A stretch of DNA of 64,000 nucleotides from Sphyrna mokarran (GCA_024679065.1 JAGIQG010000008.1:97092001-97156000); one strand, 5' to 3'. Positions 23,701-52,505 are shown, counted from the first letter of the stretch. Numbers and translations: made by a program. Notes: generated by a model not told the origin, from the sequence alone.

Positions 23701-26700
23701 AGAGTTTTGTTGCAGGATTTGCCACACCACTGGCTAAACTATTCCTGTATAATAAAAAATTTTGGCACAGATGCCAATATGCTAAATTGCCTGTCTACAA
23801 AAGAAAGGATAAATCCAAGCTAATCAATTACTGCCTCATCAGTCTACTCTCAAAAATCAGCAAAGAAGTGGAAAGCATCACTATGAAGTGCTATGAATAG
23901 GCACTTACTCAGCAATAATCTGCTCTCCGGTGTTCAGTTTGGGTTTCACTATGGGCACTCAGCTCCCGAATACATTACAGCCTTGGTCATGAATAACAGA
24001 ACTGAAACTGAGAGGGAAGATGTGAGTGACAGTTCTTGATATCATGGCAACATTTGCCCAAGTGTGCCACTAAGGAGTTCTTGAAACCTGAAGTAAGTGG
24101 GATTTGAGGAGTGGAGGGAAGCTTTCCATGGGTCAGAGTGTAATCCGCAAACAGCATTTCCCACTCATGGCTAACAAAAATCACGTGACTGGAGGCTACT
24201 TTCATGAGGGCAGTTGCCTCAGTGAATCCTAGATGACCTGCATGAAAGGTGCCACATTTGGGGTCAATATTTCCAGACTGTGAAGAAAGAAGCTTTGTCA
24301 CTGTGCAAGTTCAGGCCAAAGTTGACCATAGTTCCTTATTTGCCTGCTTAGTCTTTGGTTAAAACTGTCTTTGAAAAATCTTTACTCTAATTTCCATTAT
24401 TCTTGTTTTCACCACTTCAATATGCATGCAAATGAACTGACCTATGAAATACAGAGTAAGTATTTCTCTGGGTCGTTAGTAATTGCAGCTTATTTTCATT
24501 GGTGCAAAAGGAGTGTGGTTCACCGCATTTTTGGGTTATTTAGAGAATTTGTTAACAGCACAAGTCTGTAATTTCAGATTTCTTAAAGGCTTTCATATAT
24601 TTAAATATCTTAAATTGATTTTTTTTAAATGGAGTAATCTGAGAACACATTTGGTGCAAATGACAGTTTATTGTGGCAATTGTAGTCTAAATGCATCTGT
24701 ATTTCTTTTTCTACTTTCAGAACCTGAGGAATATTCACCACTATTAGCAGTTATTGCAAGTATAATTGGTACACTGCTAATATGTGCATTTTTGTTTGTC
24801 ACTGCAGTTTTCTACTGGTTCAGATTGAGAACAGGTAATGTATATACTGTTGAAACCTTTTTATTGTGCAGTAATTTTGTATTTGTGTGGACATTGTCCT
24901 TGTCATTCTTTTGGCCTTGTGTGCTTGTGTACCCAACAAATTGTCCAGCACAGAGTTAGAAAAAGCAACCTGGAGTTAACATTTAGCTCTGGGCAATCTG
25001 GCTGCAAATTACACACCAGTGTTTCTACAAAAATGAATTTTCATATTGTCAAATGTAAAGTGCCATCATTAATCAGTGCAATTTTGGTTTAAGAAATATT
25101 CTTTCATGTTCTTAAGCACAGTAATTTAGAATCACCAGTAACAGTATGCTGCGGTCAAGTCAAAAAGACATTCTGCCCATCACAGAAATGAATACTGTGG
25201 TATATGAATTTCAGTGCCAGTGCAATCTTTGGTATATACAAAGACTATCAGATTGTATCAAACAGCTGTTCCTTTCCGTTGTTTGCAACAGGCATGGTGC
25301 AGAGTGCAATCAACTATTATGTGCTTGCAAAACTCAAAACAATGTCAACATTAAATGTCATTCCACAATTGGACATTTGCTAAATAAACCTCAATGTTCT
25401 AAGGATTATGATGACAAGCAATTTTGCATGTACTGAAGGATATATATTGATTCACAGGGCCCTGTTCTTTGCGAACAGGTACACACATTGCGATTGTTTC
25501 AACTAAAAAAAGTATGTGACAGCAATTCACTGGTTCATTCTTCAGGATAATGCCTTGACCAGAGTCATATTGCATCGTTTAAATTGGCAGTCACCGTTAA
25601 CTGATGTGTTCTCCTTGGTGATGTCTGTACCAATCAAGAGTCCGCTTGCCAATCAATGAATATTTCATCTGATTGTGATTCGCTTTACATTTGGTATTCT
25701 TGCAAATTATCCTGATGAGTGCAAGATGAAAGAACTTGGATGAAAATGTACTTCTTTTTCAGCAATGTTGAAATTCAATACTGCCAAATGACTAACTTAG
25801 AATCAAGAAATGATACAATAGAAGTGGATTGGCTCATCGGATCCATTCTGGGTCTCTGCAGGAGATAGTTCCACTTCCTGCTCTTACCCCTCGAGCCAAT
25901 TCAGAACGATCATGACTGGTCTGATTGTGGCTTTGACTCTCTTTTCCTGCCTGACCATGGGAGCTGCACTGAAAAGTCTCCCTCCTGTTCATCACTAATC
26001 TCTGACTCCTTTCATCTTAGCCAATTTCATATCCACTGTGCCACTATCCACTTTATTCTATAGGTTTCAACTCTGTTAACAAGTCTATTAAGTAACATTG
26101 ATATAAATGTATCTATCTCCTACAACATTCCCTTTATAAATTCTCTCTGTTATCGACACAAAATAAGTTACACATAATTTGCCTTTAACAATTCTATGTT
26201 GATTTTCTGAATTAATCCACATTTATCCCAACGGATTTAGTCTTGAAACATTATTTCTAAAAGCTTCTTTATCACTCTGGTTGAATTGACTGGACTGCAA
26301 TTGCAGGATTTATCTTTTCACCTTTAGTTTTGAAGAAGGACGTAGTTTTTTATTTATTAGTGTCACAAGAAGGCTTACGTTCATGAAGTTACTATGAAAA
26401 TCCTCTAGTCACCTCACTCCAGCGCCTGTTCGGGTTCATTGAGGGAGAATTTAGCACGGGAGGAAACCAAAGACCCAAAGAAAACCCATGCAGACATGGG
26501 GAGAACATACAGACTTCACACAGGCAGTGACTCAAGTTAGGAATTGAACTTTGGTGCCTGGTGCTGTGAGGCAGCAGTGCTACTCCTGTGCCACCCAGCA
26601 TTTGCAATTCCTCTGTTCTTTCGTGCCTCTCTCATATTTCTGGACATAATGATGAAACTCTGCTGCAAATTTCAAGAAAGTGTGCATTTCTAATGTGCCC

Positions 26701-29700
26701 TGCAAGTGGCACCATTTTAAGTATCTGAAAATTACATATAAAGGATCCAGAATTGTTTGCTCGTTTTATTGGTGTATAATAAACTATTTCAAGAAAAATA
26801 GTATTCAAAACTTATAAAATTTGATTATTGGTGTTTCTGTGCCAAAAAAGGCTAATTGTAAAAGAAGGTTGGAAATAGAAACATTTAAATGCTGGAAACT
26901 CTGAGCAGATCTGGCTGATTTGGAGGCATCACTAACCTGAGGCACTGATTGTCATTCTTTCGCTACAGATGCTGGAAAACCTGTTGAAATTTTCATTTAT
27001 TTACTTAAGACCTTGAAGCCAAACAGGTCCATGTACAAGGCTTGGGTGAAGTGATTGACTTGACCTTGAGCCATGGCCCATTGTGTTGATGGGGCGAGCT
27101 TCAGCACATAACTTTCTAAACTAGCTCAAAAAGGTCACAGAAATTTGATTTGTGCTGATTGCAGTTTGCACTGCTTTCGTTGTCTGTATTAAGTCTTCGG
27201 AAGCAAAGGTCCCTTCACCAAAATCCCTTTATTTATAAGTCTGACAACAGCATACAGAATGCTTTCAGTTAGCAGTCTACACTAGGAGTCCCAGAAGAAC
27301 TGACACTCCTGGTTAAATACAAAGCAAGAGGCTCCCTGAATAACTCATCAGTTCTAACAGGCCAACCTCAATTGCCTGATTAAAGTCATTACATTTGGCT
27401 GAAATAACTTGGGGAATAAAGCAGCACAACCTAATTGAAACCTCTGTCCTATGCAGATAGATAAGGTATAATGTCTTCTATGTATACTTCTTCACTCAGC
27501 CAGTGGCCTAGCAAGAAAATAAATAAATCAACATATGAGCGTTTAAACTGTTAACTGTTATTTTGTTTTATTAGTTCCTCCGGAAATTATTGTGAACAAA
27601 CCTTCCATCATTTGCCATTTAGAAGAAGCTACCATCAGTTACCAAATTCTGAAGTTCAGACCTCGGGAAATTATAATTAATTTACTCATGAAGAGGACGA
27701 AGGATCAAAAGCAAAAAAAGATTTTTGAATGGAGTAGCCTGGAGAACAAAACCAGTTTACCGTCCAGAGATACAACCAGTGAAGTGCAGCTTCTTATCAA
27801 TGGCAGTGAAGAAGACCCATCTTTTCGGCCATCGCAGCCAGTAATTTCTAATAATGGAGATAGAACCTTCAAATTACAGGGCGCTATCAAAATATATCCT
27901 GATATATTCAAAGATAATAGGGCCGAATTAATTTTCCACATTCAGCATCAACCCTTGGCACAAGCTGTTCTGAAATCTGTAACACTGGACATTAGAGGAG
28001 GTAAATCATGAACATTATTATTAATGCTTTTTGAATCCAGTCTGGATTTATTTTGTGAACTTGTGTCTTTGAATATATGAAGTGACATGTGCTTAATCGT
28101 AATAAAGCAGTTCTGCCATCTGTAGTCTCCAAATTATGGAGAAATCCACCTGTGAAATAGTATGTTGTAGGTAAAGATGCCTCTGAGACGAATTGAGTCA
28201 AAGTACAGTAGTTTATTCAAAAGCTTTTGGGAGACACACCTGTCACCTAACAACGGTTCCCCAGTGTCTCTCCAAATACAAGTTAAGAGCATATATTTAT
28301 ATCCCCAATCATGTATGCATCTCCTCATTCTCAGCAAGTTCCCAAGCTGTGGGTTGTCCTCCATCATGGGAACATGGCTGCCTCGGCATTTCTTCATGGT
28401 TATCTCAAGGCCACAATTGAGTGTGTGATTAGCTCTTAGCTAACATTCAGGCTGACAAGACAAGTTAAAATTAACGGGTTATATAACATATGTATAATAT
28501 GTTGGTACATGACACATAAGCAGTATATAATGTGTACATATGAAATATATTTAGTACATATAAACTTCACTATATTAGGCGAAAGTCCACGAAATTAAAG
28601 AGACAACTTAACTACAAGCTGGGTCAGCTATATTTCTGGGCGGACTTATCATAAACTTAATAGCAAGAGCAGTTGCCGCCTCCCTGTCTGGGTCACCTGA
28701 AACTTGTGTACAACAACAAGGGCAGCTACAGTTTGGGCACACAAAAACAAAGTTACATTTATCTGAAATATATAAAAACAGGCTGCATCTAGGTTACTGG
28801 ATATTTTTCGCATTCTCTCAAGTGTTATAAAGTTCGTTAACTCATTCCCTACTGCATAGTATTTTCTCACTCTTATTAATGCTGAAAATTATTTTGGATT
28901 AAATTGTTGGCTGTTTTCTGTTTTGTTTTTTGTTCCCAAAGTCCCACCAAAAGTTTCAAACATTGTGGCACCGCTTCAAACTAATCACAATGAACCTGTG
29001 GCCTTGACTTGTTCAATCAATGGCTTCAAACCAAGACCATTAATGATAACATGGCAACAAGTGGACATGGATGGCAGGTTGAAAGAAATTGTTCGTTTGG
29101 ATCAGAACAACAGTACAATTTTTGCTGCTGACGATGGGATAATGCAAAAGTATAAACATCAAATAAGTGAGATTGAGTATGAAGATAAATCATATGGCAT
29201 CACCAGTATCCTAATTGTTGTGCCAAATATATTTCAAGATCAGAACACAAAGTATATCTGTGAAGTACAACACGAATGCACTCAGAGTGTGGTGATGAAA
29301 GAAATAACGTTACATGTTAGTGGTATGTAATATTTTCGACATTTTTAATGAGTGAAGAGTTCTGAACATGATATTTCTCCAACTGAGGTTATTGTGTAAC
29401 TTTTTATTTTGCACTTAGCCCATTCTGAATTTTCAGAACACAATGGATTAAATTATCTAGCCATTGGCTGAGATAGGGTAGAATCCAGACCCAGTATCTC
29501 TAATCTGTCTCTGTTAAAATCTACAGTAACTTTGTTTTTCCTGTTTCTTATTCAGCCCCTCCAAAACTGGATAAGATAACATGTGAAGAAAAAACAATTG
29601 CAGGAGAGCCCATGACTTTATACTGTCGAATACATTCTTTCTACCCCAAGAAAATTGAAGTTACTTGGCTCAAAAGTGGTGAAGAAATGACAGAAAAATC

Positions 29701-32700
29701 TGAAGACATTGAGCCAACTCTGGGAAGTGATGGACTCCATTACTTGACAAGTAGTGTGAAGTGTGTACTGACCAAAGCTGATGTTGGGAAGACGTACACA
29801 TGCCGAGTAGAACATAAAAGCCTAGTAGTGCCATTGGAAGTTAACTGGGTGCTCAATCGACTGGGTAAGCAACTGTTACCACAAACAAAAATAAGTATGC
29901 TTACTGGATGAAAATCAAATCAAATGAGAAAGTGACAGATGATTATACTTTTATCGCATTTTCTTTATCATGAATCAGAGCCAAAACAAATCACACATTA
30001 TGTAACAAGGAAATTATGTGACAAAAAGCTAAATTTTACTTTAGACATGAGATATCACATTGATTTTCACCCCCCCCTCCCATATAGTTACACAGTTCCA
30101 TAAATAAAACATTGTCCTTTATTTGTGCAGGGAGTCCTATCTGACAACAGCTTTCACCTTCATGTTTCATGAATATGAGCACCGACGCATGTTTCTATGA
30201 ACCCTCTTCCCCCTCCAGTCACAAATATGATGTTGTAGCTTTCCAGACCTCAGAGTTCTTTTCCAACTGGTCAAATTATAACACTTTGCAGTTTAGCCAC
30301 TTGGGGGAAACATTCAGTTTTTAAGCATCTGCAAGCTCTTTACACAGTCTTCCAGGTTTTGTGTACGCATCACCAGTTTGCACAGTACCTCAGAAGAGTT
30401 CCCATCTTCTATTTTTCTGCCAAACAGGCAAAATTGATTTTCTCTGTAGAAGAAACCACTTGTATTTCTCCTTTTCTGTATTTGTATTTTTTCTGCATCC
30501 ATGCACCAAGTATCTTCACCTTCCAACTCATCTGCTTGTGGCAGTCCTTTGAACCTAGCTGCCAGCCACACAACTTCTTTGTTAACCTCCTTTCTTTTTT
30601 TACTGTTTCCAGATCAAGGGTTGCCAGGTCACATGGACCTGTATTTCTTATTATTTGAAGGAAATTTCAATGACTTCTTTTACAGTTGATACAGACGTTT
30701 AAAACTCTTCAAAACGTTTACAGATTCCATGTACTTTTCAAGGAATTACATTTTCTTTGTGTTTTGCTTCAGTGTTGAAAAATAGTAGAGCATCTGACAG
30801 GTATCAGTTTACAAGACTCTTGCTCATTTAGGGATGTATATTGTTTGTGTGGCAGATTTCTGTGAGCTGATACCATAATAATCTGGGGAAAATCTGGTGC
30901 AGGAAATGCAGTTATATATCTCCTTAGCTTTTAACAAACTTAAGATTTTTCACTTGTTCATGGAACATGGGTATCACTGAACAAGGTCAACAAAAAACCC
31001 ATCCCTAACGATCCTTCAGAAGATGGTAAGCCACCTTCTTTAACAGTTGCAGTTTGTGCTAGGTAGGTACTCCCACAGTGCGATTGACAGAAATTCCAGT
31101 AATCAAAAGGCAATATATTTCCAAATCAGGATGGGCGTGTCATTTGGAGAGGAAATTGTGTGATGTATTCACCTCTACTTTTGTACTACTAGGTTAGTTA
31201 TTGAGTGAACCTTGGTAGATAGCCACAGTGTGTCCTACAGGAAGTACACATTACTGTCACTGTGTGCTGGTGGTGGAGAGAGTTAATATTTGAGGAGATA
31301 AATAGGGTATCAAATAAACAGACTTCTTTTGTTGTAGATGGTGTTTGAACTCATTGAAATTTGTTGGAGCTGCATTTATCCAGACAGATGGAGATTATTT
31401 CATTATTAGCCCGTCTCATGCCTTGTAGTTGGTGCAAAGTCTTCAGAAGACAGAGTAATGAACTTCTCATGACTAACCTGGTTAGCCATAAGAGATGCAT
31501 GGTTACAGTGGTTAGCACTGCTGTTTCACAGCTCCAAGGACTTGGGTTCGATTCCTGGTTCTGCTCACTGTGTAGAGTTTGCACAGTCCCCTCATGAGTA
31601 CTTGGGTTTCCTGCAGGTGCTCTGGTTTCCTCCCACAGTCCAAAGATGTGATTTGCCATGCTAAAAATTGCCTCTTAATGTCCTGAGATGCGTAGGTTAG
31701 AGGGATTAGTGAGTAAAATATATGGCGGTAGGGCCTGGGTGGGATTGTGGTCAGTGCAGACTCAATGGGCCAAATGGCCTCTTTTTGCATTGTAGGGTTT
31801 CTATAATTCTATGAACCCAGTTAAATTTCTGGTCAGTGGTGATCCAAAGATGTTGATCACAGGCAAGGTTTGGCAATTATAATGCCCTTGAATATCAGTG
31901 GAGGTGGTGTCAAAGGTTGATGGTTAGACTCTCTTTGTTGGAGATGTTTATTGCCTGGCAAATGTGAGGTCTGTATGTAACTTTGTTTATCAACCCATAT
32001 CTAAATGTTATTCATGTCCTGCTGCATGTGAGCATTGAATGGGGTCTGACATTATGGTAGTTATTACATCCTGGTTCAGGACATATCCAGGAATAGTGAT
32101 AGACAATTCTAACACATTCATTGAGAGGTATTATTCTGAATCTAACTAAATCAGCCTATTACTTAAAAGTCTACTCAGCAGCTCATTCAATTTGGCACTA
32201 GTTCCCAGATGTTAGTCAGAAGGATTTGCAGTCTTGACTGGGATGGTTGCATCAAGTGGTGAAATCAAGAGTGCGGTGTTTGATGGAGAGAGAAATTCGT
32301 TCAGGCAAATTTAATGTCTGAGAGAAAAAACACAAAAGAAACAATAGTTTATATAAAATTACATTTAAACATGTTACTTTCCTAAAATTTGCAAAAAAAT
32401 ATAAAGTACTAGACAGAATTCTCATATTTAGTTCACTCCTGTCTCTGCTGATCTGCTGAAATCCTCATTTATGCCTTTTGTTAAGCATTGACTACTATAT
32501 CGCACTCCTCACAAGTATCACGTATTCTACCCTCTGTAAAATTGAATCATACAGAACTCTGCTGCAATTACTTTGGGATGTTTCATTTTGAAAACACTAT
32601 ATTTGTGGAAGTTATTAATGTTCCGTGCTGGAGGTCATGACAGGCCATAATCAACACATCGTTAATTGAGCTTTTAAATTAAAGATGATGCCATATCTTT

Positions 32701-35700
32701 AAGATAAACTCTGTAATTTTTTTGTGGTGCGTTCAAGGCAATCCAAACTATTTGTGACACGTTTAGTTCAATAACTACTGTACAAAAACAGTGATATTGT
32801 TCCTTTCAATGCATTCAAATGGCGAGCCAGAGACCTAGCTGCTATTTTCACAAATGTGATGGCAATTCAGTCAGCAACTCTTATCTAAGTCCGTAAATAC
32901 TAGATTGTTAATGAATTTCTTTTGAAGTGTAATCTTTGGTTTTCTGGGCAAACAGGGCAATTTGTGCAAAGCAGTGTCCCACAAACAGCCATGTGATGGA
33001 CAACCAGTTCTTCTGTTTCTTTTTTGCTGAGTGTGTTAGAATGTGTGAAATGTTGGTCAGAACTCCTTGCTCTAGGGAATAAGTTCAATGAGATCTTTGC
33101 CAGAAGAGGTGAATCCAGCTACTTTTTCTTTCTGCAATATAATGACCTAACTTTCTGTGAATTATTCCCTCAAGCTCTGGGATGGCACTTAGCAACTAGA
33201 TCCTATTCAAAGGTGAGAGGCGAACCAAGCTGAGCGGTGTTGCAAAGCATTGTTTGCAGCCCTACGTTAACTCGTAGGCAGAAAGCATCATCTGATTTCA
33301 GCCTGAGCAATTGAAAAGTAAAACACAAAGAATGGCTTCCTGTGTTGTCATTTGGCCTGTCATATCCATGCCAAATTCTGCTAAAGCAACCTGCTCTAGT
33401 CATTCCCCCATTATTTCCCTCTACCCTCCAATATTTTGAGCTTCAGTTAATTATCCAGTTCACTTTTGAAAACTATAATTAAATCTACCTCTACCCGCTC
33501 ATGATATTAAACATCTTTAGCAAATTCCTTCTTAATCTTCTCTGCTCTAAGCAGAATGATTGCAGCTTTTCTAGTCTGTCCACATCCTTCAATCCTTTGT
33601 TATAGTAAATCTCTGCAGCAACCTTAAACATCCTTTCCAACACAGGGTGCCTGGACTTGAAGACCACACTCCAACTGGGGGTTAACTAGTGATAAGACTG
33701 CAGATTCGATCACTGAGTTAACTGAGGCATTGGTGGAGCACAGTAATCTGCCTTGGCCCCCATGAACTAGATGAATTATCACTAATTACTGACTCTCGGT
33801 TTCAAAGATTGAGTGTTTTAACTGGTGAATGAAAGATTAGGTTTGAATAGCCTCTGAGCATTCATTGTTCAGTCTCAAAAATGACAAGTGATAATGTCCA
33901 GCAGATGCCGGAGCAACTGTGGTCTGGGACACTGTGAAGGAGTGAAAAAACCAAAGCAGAGAAAAATGATGTTTTGTTCAAAACATCAATATTTGAAAGT
34001 TTATCAAAGTGCAGTAGAGTTTTGATTTAAATTGTGGTATTCATTCAGTTATGCAATCCCATTAACACTGTTTATTTTATATATGTCAGTGTCCAAGCCA
34101 AAGATAACAGAGGTTATAGCAGATCCTGTTCACCCAGAAGTGGGAAAACCTGTAACACTTTCCTGCAAAGCATTCAACTTCTTCCCAGAAGACAATAAAA
34201 TATTCTGGTTCAAAGGGTTTGAAAAAACTGAAAATGGCGTTCAAACGGAAGACGTTCAGTTGGATAAAGCAACTGGTTTATACTTTCGATGGTCGAAAAG
34301 GACATTTATTCCAACTTATTTGGACCACGGAAAAGAGTTCAAGATGCAAATCCTTCACTCTGAAACTTCAAACAAACCTATCTCATCCAGCCATTTTCTG
34401 AAAATAATGGGTAAGCAAGATCCCAGAAATCTCATAGTACCAATTATATTGAAAAGAGATATGTTCCAAATTCATGAATGTGACATGTTTTAATAGAGAC
34501 TATTTAAACAAAGATAACAGCCATTATAATCACTTCAGAGACTGTTACCTTTGAAAGAGAAATCTGAACACATTCTAACCAACAGAACTATGCTACAAAA
34601 TTTCACTTTCTGAAAAAAAAGAACCAGTTTTATTGTATTGAAGAAATTAAAGCGAGTACGATTAACTACATATATTATGCACTCTGGTTTACATCTTTTT
34701 CCCAAAGAATTCCCTTATAAGACACATCAGTATTAAAGTTATTTACTTCTGTATGGACCCCATAAATGTGCCACTGTATTGGGAATATTCTCAGAAGAAA
34801 AATACTTAAAATCTGATAGAGGTGAAACCCGTGATGAGGCTAGGGAAAGGCTAGCCCATTGCACTAGGGGTGGGCAGACGCCTTTGATCATGGTTCGCTT
34901 AAGCCAAATTAGAGTGAAGGATCAGAATAGCCAGTGAGGTTAAACCAAGACTTTATCTGATGCAATTTTTCAAAGCCACCTTGGCCTTTTGGCTGAGATG
35001 AAGCGTTAGATCAAGCCCAGGAGGGGGATGCAACGTCTCATCATGTTAGCTTGGATCTTGTTTCAATGAGCCCAAGATAGGATTATTCATTCATTCATGG
35101 GAAATGGGCATTGCTGGCTGGTCAGCATTTATTGTTCATCTCTAATTGCCCCGGGATAGTTGAGAGTCAGCCACATTGCTGTGGGTCTGGAGTCACATGT
35201 AGGCCAGATCGAATAAGGAAGGCAGATTTCCTTTCCTTCCCTTCCAAAGGACACTAGTATACTAGTTAGGTTTTTCCCAACAATTAACAGTGGTTTCATG
35301 GTCATCAATAGATTCTTAATTCCAGATTTTGGTTTTAATTGAATTCAAATTCCACCATTAGCCTTTGTAGGATTCGAATTTGAGTCTCCAGAACATTAGC
35401 TAAGTTTCTGGATTATAATCTAGCGATAATACCACTGGGCCATCATTCGTCCAATGCAAAGTCTTGTTTGTCCTTCATCTGGAGACCTTGGTTGTCTTCA
35501 TTTAAAATAGCTTCTTTGATTAGAAATAAAGCTGCCAAAAAAAAACTTTATTTAACATCTCTGGACAGTGGCTGCCCTAGTCTTTTTCAAATACTTCTAA
35601 GCTAATCTGTTTTGGATGCTTTATTTGCTGAAAGACTATAGGGACCATCGGGGAGTCAGTTAGCTCAGTTGGCTGGCTGGTTAGTTCACGATTAGTGTGA

Positions 35701-38700
35701 TGCCGACAACACAGGTTCAATTCCCTGACCAGTTGAGGTTATTCATCAATGCCTGCCTTCTCAACCTTGCCCTTTGCCTGAGATGTGGTAATCCTCAGGT
35801 TAAATCAACAAATAAAGCTCAGCTGTGAGAGCTTCCAACCTGAATTCTCTCCCACCCAGACATCTTGCTGGCAGATTTTGAGATGGGAGAGAGGGCAGGC
35901 AGTTTTGCGATGGGGCAGACTGGGCCTCTATGACACTTGCCCCTGAATAATTCCTTAAATAGCCACTTAAGGACCCTTTCCCACCCAGCTTCACTTATTG
36001 GGCTTCACACTGAGGGCACCCTCCACTCAGGGCTATGTTTCCATTGGTTCCCAGGATGACAGGAGCCAACCATGGCTGCCTCTAATAGGATGCTGGCATG
36101 GCCTTTATTTTGTAGATAATTTTAAATATGCCACTGGAGGAATGGGCTATCTGCTTCAGAGTGCCTTCAGAAATGGTGCCATGTCACTTACATTCCTGCT
36201 TTGCTTGTGACCTTTGCTTTCAGTGGTAGAATTGGTCCCAAATTGTGCTATTCCAACATAATTGCAATTATCAAATCAGTAGCATGAATGTTCTGTAAGT
36301 AAGAATTTTTTTTTTAAGCTGTAAGCCTAAGTTGCACAATGGTAAATGGGATGACTGCTCTTGTATAAAAGTCTATGGCTTGTATAAAAATTGCACATTT
36401 GGGAGAAAAAGCCATCTTTTGAATCTCCTTTTTGACACTTCAACCTGATGACTATTTGGTACAGTAGTCAATTGTAGTTTCATGCTATTTTTTATAGGAA
36501 TTCCATCTGTTGAAGATATCAAATTTGATCCACCGGAAGCCGTATATGGTTCAGATCTTGTTTTGAGCTGCAGCATCTCTAACTTTTACCCACAAACTAT
36601 TGAAACAGCTTGGCATAATAAACAAGGCCAGATAGTCAAAGGGATCATAATTAAAGGACCTGTGAAGGATGAAAGAGGATGTTTTCGGTTGACTTCCCAC
36701 TTGCAAATAAAACCAACTGCACAAGATTTCAATGAAGTATTTTACTTCCACGTGAATCATATGCAGCTAAAAGCTCCAATTGTAAAACAGACATCTCTAA
36801 CACTTCCAGGTAGGTTTTATCCTGATCCTTCTATTTACAAGTTTGAAAAGTTCCACTTCACTTTTAAATATTTGTGATTTAAGTGAATGCCTTAGGCCAC
36901 ACACAAATAAGTGGGGGCAGCATGGTAGTGCAGTGGTTAGCACTGCTGCTTCACAGTGCCAGGAACGCAGGTTCGATTCCCGGCTTGGATCACTGCCTAT
37001 GTGGATGTTCACCCCCGTGTCTGCGTGGGTTTCATCCAAGTGCTCTGGTTGCCTCCCACTTCTGAAAAGCATGCTGATTAGGTGCATTGACCGGAATAGG
37101 GGAATTTCACAATAACTTCATTACAGTGTTAATGTAAGCCTTACTTGTGACCAATAAATAAACTTAATTTTAACTTTAATCCAACTAGATATGAGAAAAT
37201 TTGGAGAAGAACACGTTTATTATGAGCCATTTTACATTAAATAAGTAATTAGAATTTGATACATTGGAGAAAAAAACTTCAATTTAAGTTACTTGAAGGA
37301 TATTTGATTTAAGGCAGTTATATTCACTGTAAAATATTACATTCCCATTAAATGAATCTTGCAAGTTCTGAACTTCTTTCTGCCTTAAAACATCAGTTCT
37401 TCAGCTTGTTAAAAATATCAAACTTTCACAACAAATCTGTTAAATAGGATTTTGACATTTTTCTTTTGTGTGATACAGCTTCCTGCCTGAATATTAATTC
37501 AATGACCTTTATTGTCTGGAATGTCCCTTTGACACCTATGGGTATCTGTTACAACATATTGCAGTAAAATGGTACACCAAAGTACTCCTCCAGATCAGTA
37601 CTATTCTCAAAATAATCTTTTCTGTACCTAATTTAAACTGTACATCCATAGAAGATATTACAATAATTTTCTTTTAGCAAGTTCATGCATATTTATTAAT
37701 ATGTGTATAATTCAGACTAGAAGATAAGATTAATTCATTTGCTTCAATAGGAAACGTTCATGACAATTTTAATTTGTTTTTCAGCTCATTCTCCTACCTT
37801 GTCTTCTATTGAAGCTGATCCACCAGTCCCTGAAGCTAATCAGCTTGTAACATTCAGTATCTCATTGAAAAGCTATGCTCCTGAAGTTGTCCAAGTGAAG
37901 TGGTTTAAAAATGGGAAACCTTGTTCAGGACAAGTTAGCAATTCTTGTCCTGTGATTGCTAATGATGGTCTCTTTTCATCAGTCACAAGCATTAAATTTA
38001 AAGCAAATGAGAACGATCATGACAGTTTGATCAGATGTGAAGTGATTCATATAGAAACGAAAGAAATTCAAGAGAAAATTTTCAAATTACTCCTTAAAGG
38101 TGGGTGTTGTTTCATGGGATTGAATTCAAAATAAAGGATTTCAATACAATTGTTATAATTGCAATATTGATGGTTTTGTTGGAATTAGAAGTACTCATTT
38201 ACATGTTTATATGACAATGAAACTTAATATTGGATAAACATTTTTTTTACGGCTGGGAGTATTTTTCGGTAAATTCAGCTTCTTTCAATACAATTGAATG
38301 GGTTACTTAATACTCCTAACGTGTCAAACAAAATAAACATTTCTATGTATTTAACTAAATTTCTCTGTTTAGGTGTTGACAGTGAAGATGCAGCTTATGA
38401 AAACCTAGGAAATGATGAAGGTGAAGTATTCACTTTGAGAAGTTCCTGTTTTGTGCGTGTTTGTTGTAATCCATAATGGATCAGTGTAGCATTTCAGGTT
38501 ATTATACGGAATAAACAGATAGTCCTTTTTAGATCTGCTTCCCATTGTGGTAGAAGTATAAGGCAGTAATGATACGATGACATTCTGCATTCTAGTTTCC
38601 ATCATTTTTGCCTGATTTTATAAAGTTGTAAAGATGCTCATTGAGGGTCGCTGGGCAAAAGATGTTTAAAAAAAAACACATTTAAAGAACCAAACCCAAA

Positions 38701-41496
38701 TATAATTAAAGCTTTGCAAAATCCTTATTTCTTCAGTAATTTAGTATTTTTGTTTCCCGTTCCTAATGACTCATTTTCTGCCATTTGCCTTCAGACAAGA
38801 CAGGACATACATTTCTAATTCGTACGTTCCCTAGACGGATAGGAAAGGGAAATCAGGCTGGTGAGATTGCACTGGAAGCTCTTGACATCTACCCATTAGT
38901 AGCTCACACTTGGATTTATTGAAGCAGCAGCCTAGGCATAGGGATAAAATAGAGCTCAATGATTTCCTAGCTGCAGAGCATATTTCTACCATGTTAAGAT
39001 AAAACTGCCACATCTGGTCATTGCACAAACTTTTCCCTGAGTACGTCAACTAATAGTTTTTCTTCATGCTATCTAATCAAATCCAATTTTCAACACATTT
39101 TTAGTGCAACCTTATTTTTAATTAAAATGTGAATAGTGTGTGTGCATGTAGCATCGTGATTTTCTTAGGTGCCTTCTAATTGACAAGATGGTGTGAGTTG
39201 ACTGGGATTTGTGCCATTTCCTCAAAGCAGGAGAGATGGACCTGCAGTTGGCCGCTGAGAGTCTGCACTCTCCTCCTTTATGCTGGCAACTGCACGTAAA
39301 AATGGTTACAGTGAGATAAGCAAAGAGCCATAAGACATTCCTCCTCAGTCTGATGCACAGTTTACGGTGGCAGTTGGAGAAACTTTGAACAAACTGCTGA
39401 CAATTCTCCTCGCCTCCGATGGTTGTTCCTTTATTCAAATGTTCAAAGGTGGATTACAGTGCACAGAGTGGACTCCACTTTATCCATCAATTTCTGATTG
39501 TTTTTGGTTCTGTATATAATTAAAAACAGAAATCTTAAATCATAATATCATTGTTTGAGAATGGGCAAAGCATCCTGATCCTTCTATTGGCAACTGGTTT
39601 TACTGTGTCTCATCAGTGTTACATTATTCATGCATCAACGCTTTGGGTGTGTGTGCACACATATCTCTGTCCTGGTTATTGGGAGGGGAGAGAGTGAGCA
39701 CTAGTTCTCACTCTACAAGACTGGATGCACTGAGCTCAGCCTCACTGCATTCAGATACACTTAGAAAAAGAAAGGAGAAATATAACTTGGAATAGAAATT
39801 CAGGAATGGAGCTTATGTTAACTTTAACTGAAACAGTAATTGGGATCTCATGCTGTGTTTTCATTGAAGATTAACGAAAGGGTTTGTTCTGCGCAACCTA
39901 TGTGCAAATACCTTTTCTGATTTCCTGTCTATATCACCCAAAGTGCTTGCCTCAATCCGCATGCCTCTCTCCACGTTGAATTGTTATATGTCAGTTTTGG
40001 GGATCTAAGAAAAGTTGCCATCTTCTGAGACTTTTTCCTTGCAGAAATCAAGCAAAAAGTGCAAACAATCTGTGTCCTTGTGCACAGTAAACCTGAAACA
40101 TCAGAATGCAGACAATAGTGGATACAATGACAACCTTTGCATCATTCAGACACTGGCCTCTGTCTGAGCTTGGCATTCCCCAAGTTAGCTTTGTTTTACC
40201 CAGGCAGCCAGCCCTTGACACATTTGCCACCACTGGTAATCGCTGCTCCTCCTCTGTTTCTCGCCCTCGTTTGCTTCTGATCACTTATCAGCAACAAATG
40301 TGGGAATAGAATGGCCTGTGATTGGAAGATCAGCCCTTTGCAAAATCTTGAATTTCATTTACGTGCATTTGAACTGACCAGTTTGTCTGCCAGCCTGTAC
40401 CAGTTTTTGAGCAGTAGCTTTGGGGACCACATAAAAGGCCTGCAATCGTTGAACATCCAATTGATGAAGCCTGGTAGCAGACAGCCAATAATGCACTGGC
40501 TTTTTGAATCTTACCAGATCTGCTACGGTGTTCAATCTTTTTGTAATATGGACTGACTTGGTGCTTAATAGTTGAGGTCATGCTAACTGTCCCACTTATC
40601 TCCTTTGGTTCTCTCTTTGCCAGTTGCCAGGATGTGATATGTTTCATAATTGTTTCAAATTTAGTAAATTTCTCTGAACTGGAAACATGCCCATTCTGGT
40701 TGATAGTGCACAAATATTTGCCCAGAAATAAATAAATTGTATCAATTTGGCTTTTCTGTGCAACTAATATATAAACTAAAAACTTGTTAGTATTTATATA
40801 TAGCACTTCAATCTCGCAGTCAGAAGTTCCAGTGTGAAGAATAGAATTCCTCCTTGTATCTCACTCCTGATTATTTCTGTTTCTTCTTATGGCTCTATCT
40901 TCATTATTCCTTCAACTCCACATGCACTCAGTTGAGACAGAAAGATGGCTAGATTGGCTCTGACTGTTGTCTTGCTTATTTCTTTTCAAAGCTCGTGATT
41001 TATGCAGGGACTTGGTGACAAATGCCTCACTTTTTGTAGAGTATCGGAAGCAGTTGAGACTAAAATGAAAAGGCCCCTAGTGTAGGAATGCAGAGCTCTA
41101 CTGCTAGAATTTTCCTTGTATTAATAGAATTAAATCAATATCTATGTCACATTTTTTAAGAGTTTTATTGTTATGAATTTTATTCCAACAGATATTTTCC
41201 AGGAGGTGTCACAGATTACCTGTCAGACAGAATGTCCTAAAGCTGGCCAGCCTGTGACGGTTTCCTGCACAATTACAGGATCCGCTGCAGAAGACACCCA
41301 CCTCACTTGGTACAGAGATGTTTACCCTATTGAAGATATGAGCTGCATTACCAATACACCATTTAAAACTGGTGTAGGTTTCATCACTTATCTAACTTAT
41401 GTACCAAAGCAAGAGGATAGCTGTTCTAAACTCCAACTTGATGTGATTACTGAGATGGACCCAATTTGCAGATACTTCCAGCTGAAATTAAATTGA
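5670..41496 (+). CDS. NCR3LG1: B7-H6/NCR3LG1-like type I membrane protein with seven post-TM C1-set Ig domains (12 coding exons, 1104 aa)
   Basis: join(5670-5781,14787-15125,20085-20417,24721-24834,27575-28000,28942-29322,29556-29864,34090-34410,36498-36809,37785-38099,38373-38420,41192-41496) = 3315 nt open frame, all GT-AG and phase 1. IgV GDASLHLPKIQLAEEGEYTCTVFVTP resembles B7-H6 [26 protein letters not shown]. NUCB2 remnant adjacent. The symbol denotes family membership, not proven 1:1 orthology. Confidence 0.85.
6290..6475 (-). mobile_element. Penelope-like 3' fragment with hammerhead motif (6357-6396)
   Basis: Homologous to 2710-2880. Minus strand ATTTGC-CTGACGA-A-GGCT-ATAA-AGCC-GAAA-GCTT-GCGAGT. 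Confidence 0.75.
6594..8466. repeat. Long inverted repeat (arms 6594-7198 and 7861-8466)
   Basis: ~605-bp arms with about 4 differences seen; mirror-image ORFs 7007+/7729- and 6850-/7973+. Confidence 0.95.
8467..9360 (+). mobile_element. CR1 LINE fragment, degenerate
   Basis: ADDTK motif at the start, then IEYKSREVML and RGNLIE motifs. Confidence 0.85.
9937..10570 (-). mobile_element. Rex1/Babar-like non-LTR retrotransposon 3' end
   Basis: KKAHRRLYFLRRLRKFGMS..YRSTIESILS..LFHLLPSGKKYRS..KNSFFP motif chain and a short AAATC-type repeat tail. Confidence 0.8.
10705..12175 (-). mobile_element. CR1 LINE RT region
   Basis: VTSGVPQGSVLGPLLFIIFINDLD, DFSKAFDKV and QHGF motifs, with frameshifts. 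Confidence 0.95.
12690..13200 (+). mobile_element. CR1 LINE 3' fragment
   Basis: Degenerate ALKAVQRKFIR and RGDLIETY motifs plus CR1-type 3' UTR. Confidence 0.75.
13200..13960. mobile_element. Old L2/CR1-group LINE fragments in mixed orientation
   Basis: YKGQVRSVMDFS and KLKTIKDKA motifs; related fragments near 9740, 23700, 31000 and 56650-58750. Confidence 0.55.
13965..14545 (-). mobile_element. CR1 LINE 3' end
   Basis: TRGHSLKI..LRRNFFSQRVVNLWNSLP motif. Confidence 0.9.
14787..15125 (+). CDS. Exon 2, V-set Ig domain (B7-H6-like)
   Basis: tttag acceptor, G|gtaag donor; ISLECKF..GVQW..GDASLHL..EEGEYTC with both Cys and the core Trp. Confidence 0.95.
16268..16571 (+). mobile_element. tRNA-derived SINE
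   Basis: Head shared with the other SINE copies; CR1-type tail CTGCACTGTAGGGATTCT. Confidence 0.65.
16740..17360 (+). mobile_element. Old CR1 fragment interrupted by a minus-strand SINE (~17020-17290)
   Basis: Degenerate SILGP, GLEYKN and EYC..LRKDI motifs flank a SINE homologous to 412-699. Confidence 0.55.
17450..17720 (+). mobile_element. Penelope-like 3' fragment with decayed hammerhead motif
   Basis: CTGATAA..GCTCC-AAAAGCTCGTG followed by AAATAAACCTGTTGGACTTTAA and CCCCAGTCCAATGCC, matching the element end near 2680-2760. Confidence 0.6.
18262..18897 (+). mobile_element. Young CR1 3' end nested in an older CR1 (~18150-19190)
   Basis: Near-identical to 21871-22490, with (GTTCTAT)n tail. 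Splits the older element's RGD|IET motif. Confidence 0.9.
20085..20417 (+). CDS. Exon 3, extracellular C1-set Ig domain
   Basis: gcag acceptor, G|gtatg donor; TLSCDVTGFYP..IW..GTFSVSS..YRCFVTH; NLS sequon. Confidence 0.95.
20715..22490 (+). mobile_element. Young CR1 LINE, 5'-truncated ORF2 (RT)
   Basis: ORFs 20730-21425 and 21410-22411 with KSPGPDG, QHGF, PQGSVLGP and FADDTK; one frameshift and one stop; GTTCTAT tail. Confidence 0.97.
24721..24834 (+). CDS. Exon 4, transmembrane segment
   Basis: ttttctactttcag acceptor, G|gtaatg donor; EPEEYSP-LLAVIASIIGTLLICAFLFVTAVFYWF-RLRT, acidic before and basic after the helix. Confidence 0.9.
25140..25795 (+). mobile_element. Penelope-like element 3' fragment (GIY-YIG) with decayed hammerhead-like motif
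   Basis: KDILP..VVYEFQCQC..WYI..RL..IKQ; CTGATGA at 25712 and GAAA at 25728. Confidence 0.7.
26352..26598 (-). mobile_element. tRNA-derived SINE
   Basis: Homologous to 412-699. Confidence 0.7.
27575..28000 (+). CDS. Exon 5, post-TM C1-like domain 1 (both canonical Cys lost, long insertion)
   Basis: ttag acceptor, G|gtaaat donor; VPPEI..ATISYQILKFRP..GDRTFKL..ELIFHIQH..VTLDIR. Confidence 0.85.
28942..29322 (+). CDS. Exon 6, post-TM C1 domain 2
   Basis: aag acceptor, G|gtatgt donor; LTCSINGFKP..ITW..YICEVQH. Confidence 0.92.
29556..29864 (+). CDS. Exon 7, post-TM C1 domain 3
   Basis: ttcag acceptor, G|gtaagc donor; LYCRIHSFYP..VTW..DGLHYLTS..YTCRVEHKSL. Confidence 0.95.
31496..31812 (+). 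mobile_element. tRNA-derived SINE inserted in an old LINE
   Basis: GTGGTTAGCACTGCTG and GGTTCGATTCC boxes; CR1-like tail. Confidence 0.75.
34090..34410 (+). CDS. Exon 8, post-TM C1 domain 4 (F-strand Cys replaced by Met)
   Basis: tcag acceptor, G|gtaagc donor; TLSCKAFNFFP..IFW..EFKMQILH. Confidence 0.92.
34980..35009 (+). pseudogene. U2 snRNA 5'-end-like fragment
   Basis: CTTGGCCTTTTGGCTGAGATGAAGCGTTAG compared with U2 CTCGGCCTTTTGGCTAAGATCAAGTGTAG. Confidence 0.55.
35088..35445 (-). mobile_element. SINE-like repeat (third family)
   Basis: tRNA-like head on the minus strand; partial homologs near 4975-5160 and 23545-23690. Confidence 0.5.
35650..35810 (+). mobile_element. tRNA-derived SINE head (second family)
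   Basis: TTAGCTCAGTTGG and GGTTCAATTCC boxes; homolog of 3985-4125. Confidence 0.55.
36498..36809 (+). CDS. Exon 9, post-TM C1 domain 5 (F-strand Cys replaced by Phe)
   Basis: tag acceptor, G|gtaggt donor; VLSCSISNFYP..TAW..VFYFHVNH. Confidence 0.92.
36914..37178 (+). mobile_element. tRNA-derived SINE
   Basis: GTGGTTAGCACTGCTGCTTCACAG, GGTTCGATTCCC and family tail. Confidence 0.8.
37785..38099 (+). CDS. Exon 10, post-TM C1 domain 6 (B-strand Cys replaced by Ile)
   Basis: tttttcag acceptor, G|gtgggt donor; VTFSISLKSYAP..VKW..DGLFS..IRCEVIH. Confidence 0.92.
38373..38420 (+). CDS. Exon 11, 48-nt acidic tyrosine-motif micro-exon
   Basis: tttctctgtttag acceptor, G|gtgaag donor, phase 1-1; GVDSEDAAYENLGNDE. 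Confidence 0.7.
41192..41496 (+). CDS. Exon 12, terminal Ig-like domain 7 (F-strand Cys replaced by Leu) and stop codon
   Basis: ccaacag acceptor, phase 1; GQPVTVSCTITG..LTWYR..FITYLTYVPKQED..LQLDV; TGA at 41494-41496. Confidence 0.85.
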
Positions 41497-41689
41497 CTTG
41501 GTATTTCAGGAACAGGAAGCAGCTCACTGAGATTTTGATATGAAAAATGGAAGCAACACCATTGTGTTTACATTTTATATTTACTCTCCATGTGTTAAAA
41601 TATGGTCTAAAATATTCTGATGATTTATTATATCTTACAAAGACACAAGATAAATCAGTTAATCAGCAATACAGACAGCTGAATGATAA

Positions 41690-42100: not shown

Positions 42101-42828
42101 TGATTAATGAATTTTCCCCATGTTTCTAATTAGCTATTTATATCAAAATTGAAAGAATTTTCAATTTGAAGGGCCTTCAAATGCGCTGTTTCTGAAAACA
42201 GAATAACTACATAAACTAAAGGGACAAGAAATATAAGTGAGGAAAGAGAGGAGATAATGAATTAACTGCTAAAATGATTACTACAGCCTGTTGTGCTGGG
42301 TGCTTAGGGTGAGAACGAAGGACGCAGTGTCATCTCCTATTGTCATTCTTCAAGATCATAACTGGCCCCAGTCTTGTAATGTTCCACAAGTTCTATTTGT
42401 GGGGGTAAAGGTATGCAGGTGGCTTCCAGTATCTCTTGTCAACATCTTCTGCATAACTCGTGTGGAACTTTTTCCTGCAGGATAAAGTGTGACAATCAGA
42501 ATGTGCTTGTTGTGACTGAATTGTTATGATGCTGCGTGAGTAAGTGAGGGGTGCATGTGTGGAGAAAGATGGAGTGGTGTTGTGGTTGTAGGCAATGAAA
42601 GAAATCAGTGGAGGATAATGCCTGTGTGCTTGCAGGTTTGAGGAAAGGACCATTGAGATAAGAGATAAAATTCTTGGGAACAGTGGGGACGCTCTTCAGG
42701 ATTGCAGCCATGTTCTGTGAACTAAGTTAGCATTGACCTCTTTGGTCACCTCTTCCCACTGACTATAAAAGAGTTACCTGGACAGCTTTCTGTTGTCTGT
42801 TTCAGCTTTAATTGTTTGGAATACGAGG

Positions 42829-44069
42829 GTAAAGTTTGTTGTATTTCCTTTCTTTCATTTATAGTGATTGAGTAACTTGCTTGATTTATAAACCGACAAC
42901 ACATGAAAGTCCAAAGAGTTTTGTTTTTATCCCATGGCCGTGAATTTGAGAAATAAATATGTTTTGTGAAACATAGAAAAACTACAGCACCAACAGGCCC
43001 TTCGGTCCACAAGTTGCCTCAGTCATATCACTACCTACTAGGCTTACCTACAACCCTCAATCCTATTAATCCCCACGTACTCATTCAGAAGCCTCTTAAA
43101 AGACCCTCTCGAATTTGTCTCCATCACCACCGATGGCAGCTGATTCCGCTCACCCACCACCCTCTGAGTGAAAAACTTACCCCTGAATCTCCTCTTTACT
43201 TACTCCCCAGCACCTTAAACCTGTGTCCTCTCATAGCAGCCATTTCAACCCTTGGAAAAAGCCTCTGAGAATCCACCTGATGTATACCTCTCAATATCTT
43301 ATACACCTCTAAAGGTCACTTCTCATCCTTCACCACTCCAAGGAGAAAAAAACCGAGCTACATCAACCTATCTTCATAAGGCATGCCACCCAGTCCAGGC
43401 AACATCCTTGTAAATCTCCTCTGCACTGTTTCAGTAGCTTCCATATCCTTCCTTTAATGGGGGGACCAGAACTGAGCACAGTAGTCCAAATGGGGTCTGA
43501 CCAGACTCTTATAAAACTGCAGCATTATCTCCTGACTCCTAAACTCAATCCCTAGATTCATAAAGGTCAATACACCATACACCTTCTTAACCACAAGTTG
43601 TATTGTACAACGACTGTTAAACAGATGCATTTTATCTTTTATTAAATGTAGAACCAGACTAATAAATTTAGCAAACTCCAAGGTGCTGAAGTTTTCTACA
43701 AATACCGTAATTGAAAATCATGATTTTCACTCAGAGGGTGGTGGGTGAGCGGAATCAGCTGCCGTCGGTGGTGATGGAGACAAATTCGAGAGGGTCTTTT
43801 AAGAGGCTTCTGAATGAGTACGTGGGGATTAATAGGATTGAGGGTTGTAGGTAAGCCTAGTAGGTAGTGATATGACTGAGGCAACTTGTGGACCGAAGGG
43901 CCTGTTGGTGCTGTAGTTTTTCTATGTTTCACAAAACATATTTATTTCTCAAATTCACGGCCATGGGATAAAAACAAAACTCTTTGGACTTCCACGTGTT
44001 GTCGGTTTATAAATCAAGCAAGTTACTCAATCACTATAAATGAAAGAAAGGAAATACAACAAACTTTAC
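42829..44069. repeat. Inverted repeat (arms 42829-43174 and 43724-44069) involving a CR1 3' end
   Basis: 346-bp arms with about 3 differences; mirror ORFs 42966+/43696-; the CR1 body continues on the minus strand to ~43597. Confidence 0.95.
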
Positions 44070-44835
44070 ATGATTTTGCGACATGTACATCTGACAGTGT
44101 AGGGTTACAGAATTGCACCCCCACTTCTAATACTTTATTTTTTAAAAACAAGTAAATAAAATATGTTTTAAAACAATAAGATTGTTGTATGTACTATTAA
44201 CTGAAATCGGTTTATTCTATTTGAAGCTATTGTTTAGCTTCTGTGTATATTTGTAAAGCAAAAAAAAAGTTTCAAATTTGGAAGGAAGCTTTATAAGTTT
44301 TGAAACAAATAGGTGCAGGAATAATAACATTGTAGCAATAGATCTTAAAATCTGGGATAAAGCAAACAATATATTCATTTTATACTTTGATTAAATCTGG
44401 TTGCTACATCTACCATCAACCATTGTACATAGTAAAGAAAAGAGAGTAATCAGGATCAGATCAAGATGGATAGGGACAGAAATGGGGTCACTGGCAAAAT
44501 TTCTTACAGACATTGGTAGGGAATTTGCTAATAAGTTGAGGGATATGTGTGAAAATATGAATATCGTAGCCATGAATATGGCTGCAGAAAGCCCGTTTAG
44601 TAATGGGATGTGTGAGTGGAACTATTCAGTAATAAATGACATGCTGTGGAAAATTTTGTTAGATAGACCAAAATGTAAGTTAAATTTAGCCTTACATGTA
44701 AAGAACTCATTGCAGATGGTCGGGGGATATAGTCCATATCAGTTAGTGTTTGGTAGAAATCCTAAAATTCCGTCCATTTTGAATGACCAGCCTCCAGGGC
44801 TGGAAGGGATTACAAGTAGCTCTGCCTTTGCTGAG

Positions 44836-45285
44836 TGTTGGAGTAAATCCAAAATTAAAAGATACAAAATGGTTTACCTGGCACAAAAGGGACTCTGAAA
44901 AGAAACTAAAATGTGCTGATTTAGGCACTGACGTTGCACACCAATTTAAATTATGTTAGTGTCTAATTACTGCAGGAAATAAATCAGACATTGAGGCCCA
45001 GATGATCACATTACTTGAGATAAGGCATAACCAAAACAATGAGTTTTATTAACAAATCAATCATTGAAAAAAGGGCATAAATGTATAACAATGTGCTAAC
45101 TGCTAATAACGCTACTTGTCCACCATTTTTGACAATGTATAAAAGAAGCTCAGTTGTCATTTTAAAATGGAGAAAGTGACTGCGAGCACTGTGGTGAGTC
45201 CAGCGCTTCTCCCAAAGTTCTGTCTAATAAATTGCGTGTTAAACCTTTAACTCTGATTCCAAGTGGTGATTTTTTTCCCACAAAA
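44836..45285 (+). repeat. ERV 5' LTR
   Basis: Starts TGTTGGAG; homologous to 52506-52919; contains TATAAAAG and AATAAA. Confidence 0.9.
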
Positions 45286-45290
45286 AAAAT

Positions 45291-45308
45291 TGCCGTAGGT
45301 GGCAGGAT
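45291..45308 (+). other. Primer binding site, tRNA-Ser-like (degenerate)
   Basis: TGCCGTAGGTGGCAGGAT matches TGGCGTAGTCGGCAGGAT at 15/18 positions, just after the LTR. Confidence 0.7.
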
Positions 45309-45373
45309 CTCACTATTAGTTGATTGCCCTTGATTGGTGAACAGAGATTATTGAACTGTGGGAGTCAGACTGA

Positions 45374-45488
45374 ATAAGAAGTCAACACCAGGCGTAAGTC
45401 CTAACTTAAACCTGGTGTTGTCAGATTTCTTAATTTGTTTACCCCAGTCCAACACCAGCATCTCCATATCATGACTACCATCGACACT
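45374..45488 (+). mobile_element. Miniature Penelope-like insertion with 13-bp target duplication
   Basis: Flanked by GGAGTCAGACTGA at 45361-45373 and 45489-45501; internal inverted AACACCAGG/CCTGGTGTT; CCCCAGTCCAACACC end motif. Confidence 0.75.
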
Positions 45489-45954
45489 GGAGTCAGACTG
45501 AGCCAACAATGCAGTTAAAAATGGGTGAAAATTAGGGGAATTTATGGGACTATCAGATAGAAATAGGAATTGATTGCTTGTGCTGATCGACTAAGGACAA
45601 GGAAGTGTCTGTCTCAAACACGCAGCCTTAGACTGGTTGTTAAGAGGGAAAATCCCCCACGTGAAGATCAGGATGCTGAAGTGGCATAGAGGCACCAAGG
45701 CACTTAAGATTTTGAAGCACAAGTGATAAAGGTCATTTGGTATCAAATTCTGTAGTGGCAAACAAATGCAGAGTTTGCCACCTATTTGCATAAAAGTTTG
45801 TTTAGTTTGTGTACTTGTCTGTCACATTGCAAAGCGGTGCGGTAAGGAACAGATCACCCTGACCTACAGCTGGATTCTGTTGGAGGAGACACATTGCTGA
45901 GGAGATAACACGACGGCCACAACACGTTGTAGCCGGGGTGTCGAAGTTTGCAAG

Positions 45955-47445: not shown

Positions 47446-47449
47446 GGGT

Positions 47450-50807: not shown

Positions 50808-50946
50808 ACCATAAAGTAACCAGAGTGCTTTCCCCAAAACAGGAGACGACTACAAACAAGATTAACTGAAGCGTTCGGGTTGGCAATACAGCCTTTGTGA
50901 AGTTGTTAATATAGAGTAATAAGATCAATTCTTTCCTGTTGCAAAC

Positions 50947-52375: not shown

Positions 52376-52505
52376 AAGATGGAAGTCTACCTGTCAATGT
52401 GTGACCTGTTGGTTATGGGTCAGGCTTATCAATTGCCGGACCCATGATGCTGCTATTGTTGGTCTGTCAGATTTTTAGAGCATAATCCTGACCAAAAGGG
52501 GGAAT

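Follow-up and report, generated by a model that had tools for sequence, protein, structure and literature searches.

In textbooks, C1-set immunoglobulin (Ig) domains are modules that lie outside the cell and hold a disulfide bond, as in antibodies, T-cell receptors and MHC molecules. The locus studied here, in the shark Sphyrna mokarran, encodes seven C1-type domains behind a transmembrane (TM) helix, only two of which keep the canonical cysteine pair, raising the questions of what this gene is, on which side of the membrane these domains lie, and how they could fold and act there. The window analysed, G000:C1437:97,092,001-97,156,000, comprises 64,000 nucleotides of a 2.77 Gb genome, and window positions are counted from its first letter.

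The window gene and its genomic neighbourhood

We found a gene of 12 exons on the plus strand (5670-41496), with exon boundaries read from the sequence, all introns in phase 1 with GT-AG ends, and an exon order that matches the joins in database proteins from other sharks. The spliced frame is predicted to encode an uninterrupted protein of 1,104 aa whose sole stop is terminal, in the order leader, V, C1, one TM helix and seven C1-type Ig domains (D1-D7). Exon 1 (5670-5781) encodes the leader, aa 1-37, which is the same in orthologs; exons 2 (14787-15125) and 3 (20085-20417) encode a V-set and a C1-set domain, as assigned by Pfam and by strand positions; and exon 4 (24721-24834) encodes a single hydrophobic helix at about aa 268-292, with an acidic side before it and a basic side after it. 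With a leader and one helix, the protein has the features of a type I membrane protein.

The sequence-only reading of this stretch had proposed that the B- and F-strand cysteines persist in both pre-TM domains and are lost only after the helix, and the losses that it listed in exons 5, 8, 9, 10 and 12 agree residue for residue with our exon model. The V domain keeps C61 and C132, and the C1 domain C174 and C240. D1 (exon 5, 27575-28000) has lost both cysteines, with Y322 (codon 27640) and F420 (codon 27934) at the B and F positions, as well as the C-strand Trp, and carries a long inserted loop containing the acidic dileucine motif EVQLLI (aa 369-374, 27781-27798). Its sister domain D2 (exon 6, 28942-29322; C465 and C548) and D3 (exon 7, 29556-29864; C592 and C651) are, as had been claimed, the only post-TM domains with an intact pair. 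D4 (exon 8, 34090-34410), the best-conserved domain among sharks, combines C697 with M757 (codon 34344); D5 (exon 9, 36498-36809) has C803 and F862 (codon 36746); D6 (exon 10, 37785-38099) has I908 (codon 37859) and C967; and D7 (exon 12, 41192-41496), which ends in the stop codon, has C1029 and L1086 (codon 41437). Between D6 and D7, exon 11 (38373-38420) encodes a 16-residue acidic linker with YENL at 38396-38407. D1, D4, D5, D6 and D7 lack the canonical disulfide pair and are C1-derived rather than canonical C1-set domains, and four of these five still hold one canonical cysteine. The F/YxP, core Trp and VxH motifs are largely retained, as described earlier, except that D1 has L337 in place of the C-strand Trp and D7 lacks the His of VxH. 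A Mustelus model (P0002) continues beyond the position of the window stop into a 12-residue stretch similar to window 41494-41535; most other orthologs end where the window protein does.

By sequence, the window gene is the shark ortholog of B7H6/NCR3LG1, a signal displayed to natural killer (NK) cells at the cell surface. Human B7-H6 ranks first among PDB matches to the ectodomain of the ortholog from great white shark (P0003; E 2.5e-34, with the next family at 5.8e-22), and the window protein shares 55% identity over its full length with a protein of nurse shark that UniRef lists as B7H6 (P0210). Upstream on C1437, single-exon matches identify RPS13 at 96.418 Mb, a PI3K Ras-binding domain (PI3K_rbd) at 96.602 Mb and a nucleobindin-like EF-hand at 96.705 Mb, with the subfamily of the latter two not distinguishable from such matches, followed by a cluster of B7H6-like genes at 96.83-97.29 Mb. 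This is the side and order expected from human 11p15.1, where RPS13, PIK3C2A and NUCB2 lie on one side of B7-H6. On the other side the human neighbour is KCNJ11; the nearest of 18 Kir matches in the shark genome lies 10 Mb from the cluster, and IFITM exons are found downstream instead. Rearrangement in either lineage would explain this missing synteny. The two IFITM (CD225) exons lie directly downstream of the cluster, at 97.355 and 97.415 Mb (L030 and L076). Human B7-H6 maps to 11p15.1 according to PMC2715080. That the window protein binds NKp30 (NCR3) is an assumption based on the family to which it belongs (PMC6514059, PMC2715080).

B7H6-like V-C1 pairs number at least seven in the cluster; post-TM Ig exons come after six of these, and the tails comprise 0 to 7 Ig exons as found. 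An additional D1 exon lies 2 Mb off, at 99.322 Mb, and a horn shark protein (P0039) carries seven tandem D1 copies. An inverted paralog on the minus strand (97,196,000-97,243,000; L014-L019) contains two leader-like exons, is interrupted by a TGA in D7 and shows no match to D4 or to the acidic dileucine motif; it is probably a pseudogene or a truncated copy. Window 35415-39269, which covers D5, D6 and the linker exon, is 96.7% identical over 3,874 bp to this paralog at about 97.199-97.202 Mb, whereas the remaining exons share 62-81% protein identity; recent gene conversion across D5-D6-linker is therefore likely, judging from the two copies.

Elsewhere in the window, a broken LTR-type retroelement occupies 44395-54737 (RVT_1 at 47925-48254, integrase at 49913-50419), its pieces seeming to have landed within another element, one that matches RVT_2 at 53673-54119. 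Remnants of LINE-type reverse transcriptase lie at 10941-12188 (intron 1) and 20715-22411 (intron 3). Two pairs of near-identical segments, one inverted (6770-7207 and 7855-8301) and the other at 42746-43018 and 43880-44155, were seen as duplicated reading frames.

Cysteine losses across the family

The family set consisted of 83 proteins including that of the window, each showing a helix next to a C1 domain and, after it, a domain that matched profiles made from 14 seeds; 19 isoform, duplicate or fragment rows had been removed beforehand. The members identified by name represent sharks, rays, chimaera, reedfish (bichir), coelacanth, lungfish, newt and frogs; no amniote was among the 30 rows looked up, of 150, in one protein listing. 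Both cysteines are kept in 160/161 pre-TM domains (V 76/77, C1 84/84) versus 122/313 post-TM domains, a difference whose Fisher value of 3e-46 is not a probability, the sequences being related. Orthologs thus do not keep both cysteines everywhere, and the pattern first read from the window stands. By position, the intact pair was scored in 1/85 D1, 47/49 D2, 55/58 D3, 3/47 D4, 14/37 D5, 0/27 D6 and 2/10 D7 domains, where a few of the D4, D6 and D7 labels may be swapped. The lone cysteines are also kept, on the B strand of D4 (47/47) and of D5 (35 of 37 scorable) and on the F strand of D6 (23/27), and almost all replacements across the family are hydrophobic, as had been claimed for the window. 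In a control of six unrelated proteins with C1 arrays before the helix, all 61 of 61 domains have both cysteines. Among non-core single-helix proteins of more than 600 aa, both are present in 101/111 pre-TM and 119/176 post-TM domains, indicating that the bias between the two sides of the helix is general but not absolute.

A tree built on 108 columns, which leaves the deep forks open, placed 133 domains (those of 16 family proteins and of two outgroup proteins) in groups by position: D2 98/81, D3 99/97, D5 100/93, D1 with D2 100/97, D4 (15/16) 100/97 and D6 (15/16) 99/95. Because this grouping extends from sharks and chimaera to bichir, coelacanth, lungfish and amphibians, no fewer than six positions predate the split between sharks and bony vertebrates, and comparison of the sequences shows the array, predicted to be cytosolic, to have been present already in the jawed-vertebrate ancestor. 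The D1-F, D4-F and D6-B losses are common to shark through frog; the D1-B loss is younger and affects some lineages; at D5-F, fishes have Phe whereas the amphibians checked have Cys; and both cysteines are retained in chimaera D7 and in D1 of paralog E. At least five separate loss events can be read from these alignments by our own count, which is not a formal reconstruction. The earlier suggestion of repeated independent loss thus holds between domain positions, but the losses are old and common to shark and frog.

A second group of V-C1-(C1)-TM proteins was seen in frogs, reedfish, coelacanth and teleosts (si:ch211-180a12.2), comprising P0056, P0060, P0072, P0099, P0104, P0109, P0020 and P0223, which have up to about 12 C1-like domains after the helix, have frequently lost cysteines and carry acidic dileucine motifs. 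In P0112, V-C1-TM-D1 is fused to a Tachylectin domain (E 6e-30), which may reflect a merged gene model.

Fold and membrane topology of the post-TM domains

When the domains were compared with the Pfam C1-set profile, D2-D6 scored above the cut-off, D7 reached 14.6 bits against a cut-off of 21, and D1 gave no match. D1 and D7 are still C1-type as judged by sequence profiles and, for D1, by modelling. The D1 exons of two paralogs, E and C, score above the same cut-off, and profile comparison matched D1 to the pre-TM C1 domain at 98.8%; D7 matched D3 at 98.4% and the pre-TM C1 domain at only 15.9%, so that its C1-type assignment is through D3 only. D1 was the one domain modelled, and its AlphaFold model (59 sequences), which is a prediction and no gauge of stability, is a beta-strand domain with a mean pLDDT of 87 and one low-confidence loop. 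Against 48,161 solved chains, human B7-H6 gave the top match to this model with its C1 domain (Z 12.4, rmsd 1.9, 98 aligned), with V-type domains tying within 1 Z of it, and Foldseek returned Ig-fold chains among the matches listed. An ESM Atlas search with D4 found C1-set clusters; that with D1 gave weak bacterial look-alikes (recognition 1882, below the 2300 mark), which were discarded. The sequence-only reading had seen natural disulfide-free scaffolds in the post-TM domains generally, and this property, in a stable form, is predicted here for D1 only.

The C-strand Trp is present in 10/85 family D1 domains, and the E-strand Ser that is conserved in C1 domains is Cys in 58/74 of them and Gly in the window. 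B-E strand disulfides are known from Siglecs; such an alternative bond in D1 was considered and rejected, as the E-strand and B-strand cysteines do not co-vary (39/8/19/8, p 0.25).

Net charge is greater after the helix than before it in 76/83 family proteins, 56 of the 64 proteins with enough sequence before V have a stretch there that resembles a leader, and a second, later hydrophobic stretch occurs in just 1/83. The N-x-S/T sequons that remain after the helix, which had been raised as a caveat to a cytosolic location, lose their force across the family, where 239 were seen against 231 from shuffles (observed/expected 1.03). Pre-TM sequons number 259 against 154 from shuffles (1.68), but the reversed motif is also high (222); in the window, the post-TM part has 4 against 4.9 expected and the ectodomain 1 against 2.5. 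Cysteine content is 3.0 per 100 aa after the helix versus 2.3 before it. From these features, D1-D7 are very probably cytosolic. The earlier explanation of the losses by a reducing cytosol agrees with this location, but the cytosol alone does not predict the D2/D3 pair, which is kept in 102/107 domains. Given that lone cysteines are kept as strictly as pairs, we infer that no disulfide is needed for the retention in D2 and D3. Strict retention of lone cysteines fits a buried core residue that is unbonded, and the post-TM domains would be likely to fold without a disulfide.

Three other readings of the post-TM exons bear on this conclusion. They might be decaying or neutrally evolving duplicates, as the dN/dS of 0.68-0.95 against the inverted paralog could suggest; however, that paralog is itself probably broken, and the V exon also gives 1.05, which makes the comparison uninformative. 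In the window gene, the reading frame is uninterrupted and the splice sites are canonical; compared with the chimaera ortholog, identity amounts to 45% in V, 39% in C1 and 40-54% in D1-D7. The post-TM domains are conserved like the ectodomain to coelacanth and frog as well, which rules out decay; the idea is scarcely credible, and by these alignments the losses are position-specific and old. An inverted protein, with its N-terminus inside and D1-D7 extracellular, would accommodate the four sequons in window D1-D2, but the leader exon, the charge bias and the near-universal disulfide pair of the pre-TM domains oppose it, as does the type I topology given for human B7-H6 in PMC2715080, and we regard it as highly improbable. 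Skipping of the TM exon could instead yield a secreted isoform that carries V-C1-D1-D7 through the ER, where selection would keep the D2 and D3 disulfides. The exon, of 114 nt and phase 1-1, could be skipped in frame, and in four database models (P0006, P0021, P0033 and P0075) the array follows C1 directly and no helix was detected; faulty gene models may account for these, P0006 lacking other parts too, and the chance level of post-TM sequons, the many free cysteines and the helix in the named nurse shark protein make such an isoform a very unlikely explanation.

The loop-embedded dileucine motif and a proposed role for the tail

The inserted loop of D1 spans about 30-70 residues, among which conservation is confined to one acidic column (53%) and two leucine columns (61% and 64%). 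In these related, hence not independent, sequences, from which the pattern itself had been picked by inspection, [DE]xxxL[LIM] occurs in 41/74 D1 loops (shuffle mean 5.7, maximum 14 over 500 shuffles; 14 reversed) and the strict form [DE]xxxL[LI] in 28/74 (4.6 expected; 12 reversed). An alternative cut of the loop gave 42 and 27, respectively, and the D2 loop, used as a control, has the motif in 1/49. Among 24 distant proteins with post-TM arrays, chosen by eye, 15 carry it no more than 110 residues from the helix (3.4 expected, 2 reversed). It is missing from 33/74 D1 loops, and no loop match was seen in five neighbouring paralogs of the same genome, namely the inverted copy and paralogs A, B, C and E. 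In the D1 model, EVQLLI occupies residues 69-74, and residues 60-71, with pLDDT below 50, are the sole low-confidence part, so that an AP-type dileucine consensus lies in an exposed segment on the predicted cytosolic side.

Membrane proteins with acidic dileucine motifs in their cytosolic tails are directed by AP complexes to endosomes and lysosomes (PMC2173715). The window motif fits the [DE]xxxL[LI] consensus of the signals in Nef of HIV-1 and in LIMP-II (PMC2173715) and lies in a predicted flexible loop; those signals sit in unstructured tails, whereas the window motif is inside an Ig domain and is a putative signal. YxN is found in the linker exon of 7/19 cartilaginous-fish proteins ending in D7 and is absent from the other 12/19. 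Such a motif can be read as an SH2 site, and tyrosine sulfation sites look alike. The B7H6 identity and the dileucine motif are additions to the sequence-only reading.

Among known proteins, nurse shark B7H6 (P0210) has no architectural difference from the window protein: it shares V-C1-TM-D1 to D7, the presence or absence of Cys at the same 18 positions, the dileucine motif and the YxN linker, with the D1 F, D6 B and D7 F replacements differing in letter only. The gene is thus already known under the name B7H6. A Xenopus B7H6 gene cluster was reportedly described by Flajnik et al. in 2012. The Xenopus proteins P0011-P0019 likewise have C1-TM followed by D1-D5 or D1-D6 type domains and show the D1-F and D4-F losses, plus D6-B where D6 is present; unlike the window protein, they have both cysteines in D5, and most models end after D5 or D6. 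Titin, obscurin and palladin also contain tandem cytosolic Ig domains, often without the B-F disulfide, but these are I-set domains and not tails of type I immune ligands, whereas the window domains are C1-set. Human B7-H6 (NCR3LG1) shares the V + C1 ectodomain and type I form, but has 454 aa and no cytosolic Ig array; its tail instead shows Gag homology and ITIM-, SH2- and SH3-type motifs, according to PMC2715080. A literature search of limited reach, which leaves room for a prior account, found no description of cytosolic Ig domains of B7H6, and neither the family-wide cysteine pattern nor the loop-embedded dileucine appeared in the literature examined; the tail architecture may already be published.

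We favour, with somewhat better than even confidence, a reading of the window gene product as a protein of the NKp30-ligand type, whose cytosolic scaffold would lack disulfides and whose trafficking would be under adaptor control. In all probability V-C1 would face outward and D1-D7 the cytosol, where no B-F disulfide would form; each cysteine would serve as a buried core residue only, and would be kept or swapped for another hydrophobic residue position by position. With moderate confidence, we propose that the D1-loop dileucine, set off from the membrane by one domain and a few residues, would bind AP clathrin adaptors and that this binding would route the protein to endosomes or lysosomes. 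Such routing would set the amount of ligand at the surface met by NKp30-bearing cells, and, from the motif pattern, AP-dependent control of surface display appears on balance probable. The least certain steps are that D2-D7 may form a rigid docking rod and that the acidic YxN linker may recruit an SH2 protein in some sharks.

The tail could be cytosolic and disulfide-free without the dileucine-like motif being a sorting signal, if the loop docked another partner or a neighbouring domain and the array were a spacer or a dimerisation rod. C1 domains do pair in Ig/antibodies and MHC, many loops lack the motif, and 13 of the 41 matches need the relaxed LM form; however, the motif is directional (41 forward versus 14 reversed), lies in an otherwise unconserved loop and recurs in the first post-TM domain of the distant set, which leaves this reading unlikely, though not negligible. 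Another possibility concerns D2 and D3, which keep both cysteines while every other position has lost one, and which might form cytosolic disulfides under oxidative stress that alter ligand trafficking or signalling, much as reversible disulfides occur in cytosolic Ig domains such as titin's. Yet partnerless cysteines are kept equally (all 47 in D4), core packing explains the retention, and the E-strand Cys of D1 does not co-vary with its B-strand Cys, so that we consider such a redox switch quite improbable. A broader scheme, which we think speculative and rather unlikely, is a gated stress ligand: the ancestral jawed-vertebrate B7H6 would have been held inside by its cytosolic C1 array via the Ig-loop dileucine, D2/D3 cysteine pairs or D4-D7 partners would sense stress or infection and release it for NK recognition, humans would have swapped this module for a Gag-derived tail, and the second frog, bichir and coelacanth group would follow the same design.

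Under the favoured reading of a disulfide-free cytosolic scaffold with AP-dependent trafficking, the six to eight cytosolic C1 domains across jawed vertebrates would form a series supplied by nature, in which the canonical cysteines number two, one or none. This series lets one ask how the C1 fold dispenses with its disulfide, a question relevant to designing antibody fragments that fold intracellularly. For NK biology, the conserved loop motif would offer a single-mutation handle on the surface display of an NKp30 ligand, and the pattern suggests that the human Gag-like tail is a late replacement. If the gated-ligand scheme were true, cytosolic C1 arrays would represent an overlooked class of vertebrate immune receptor tail.
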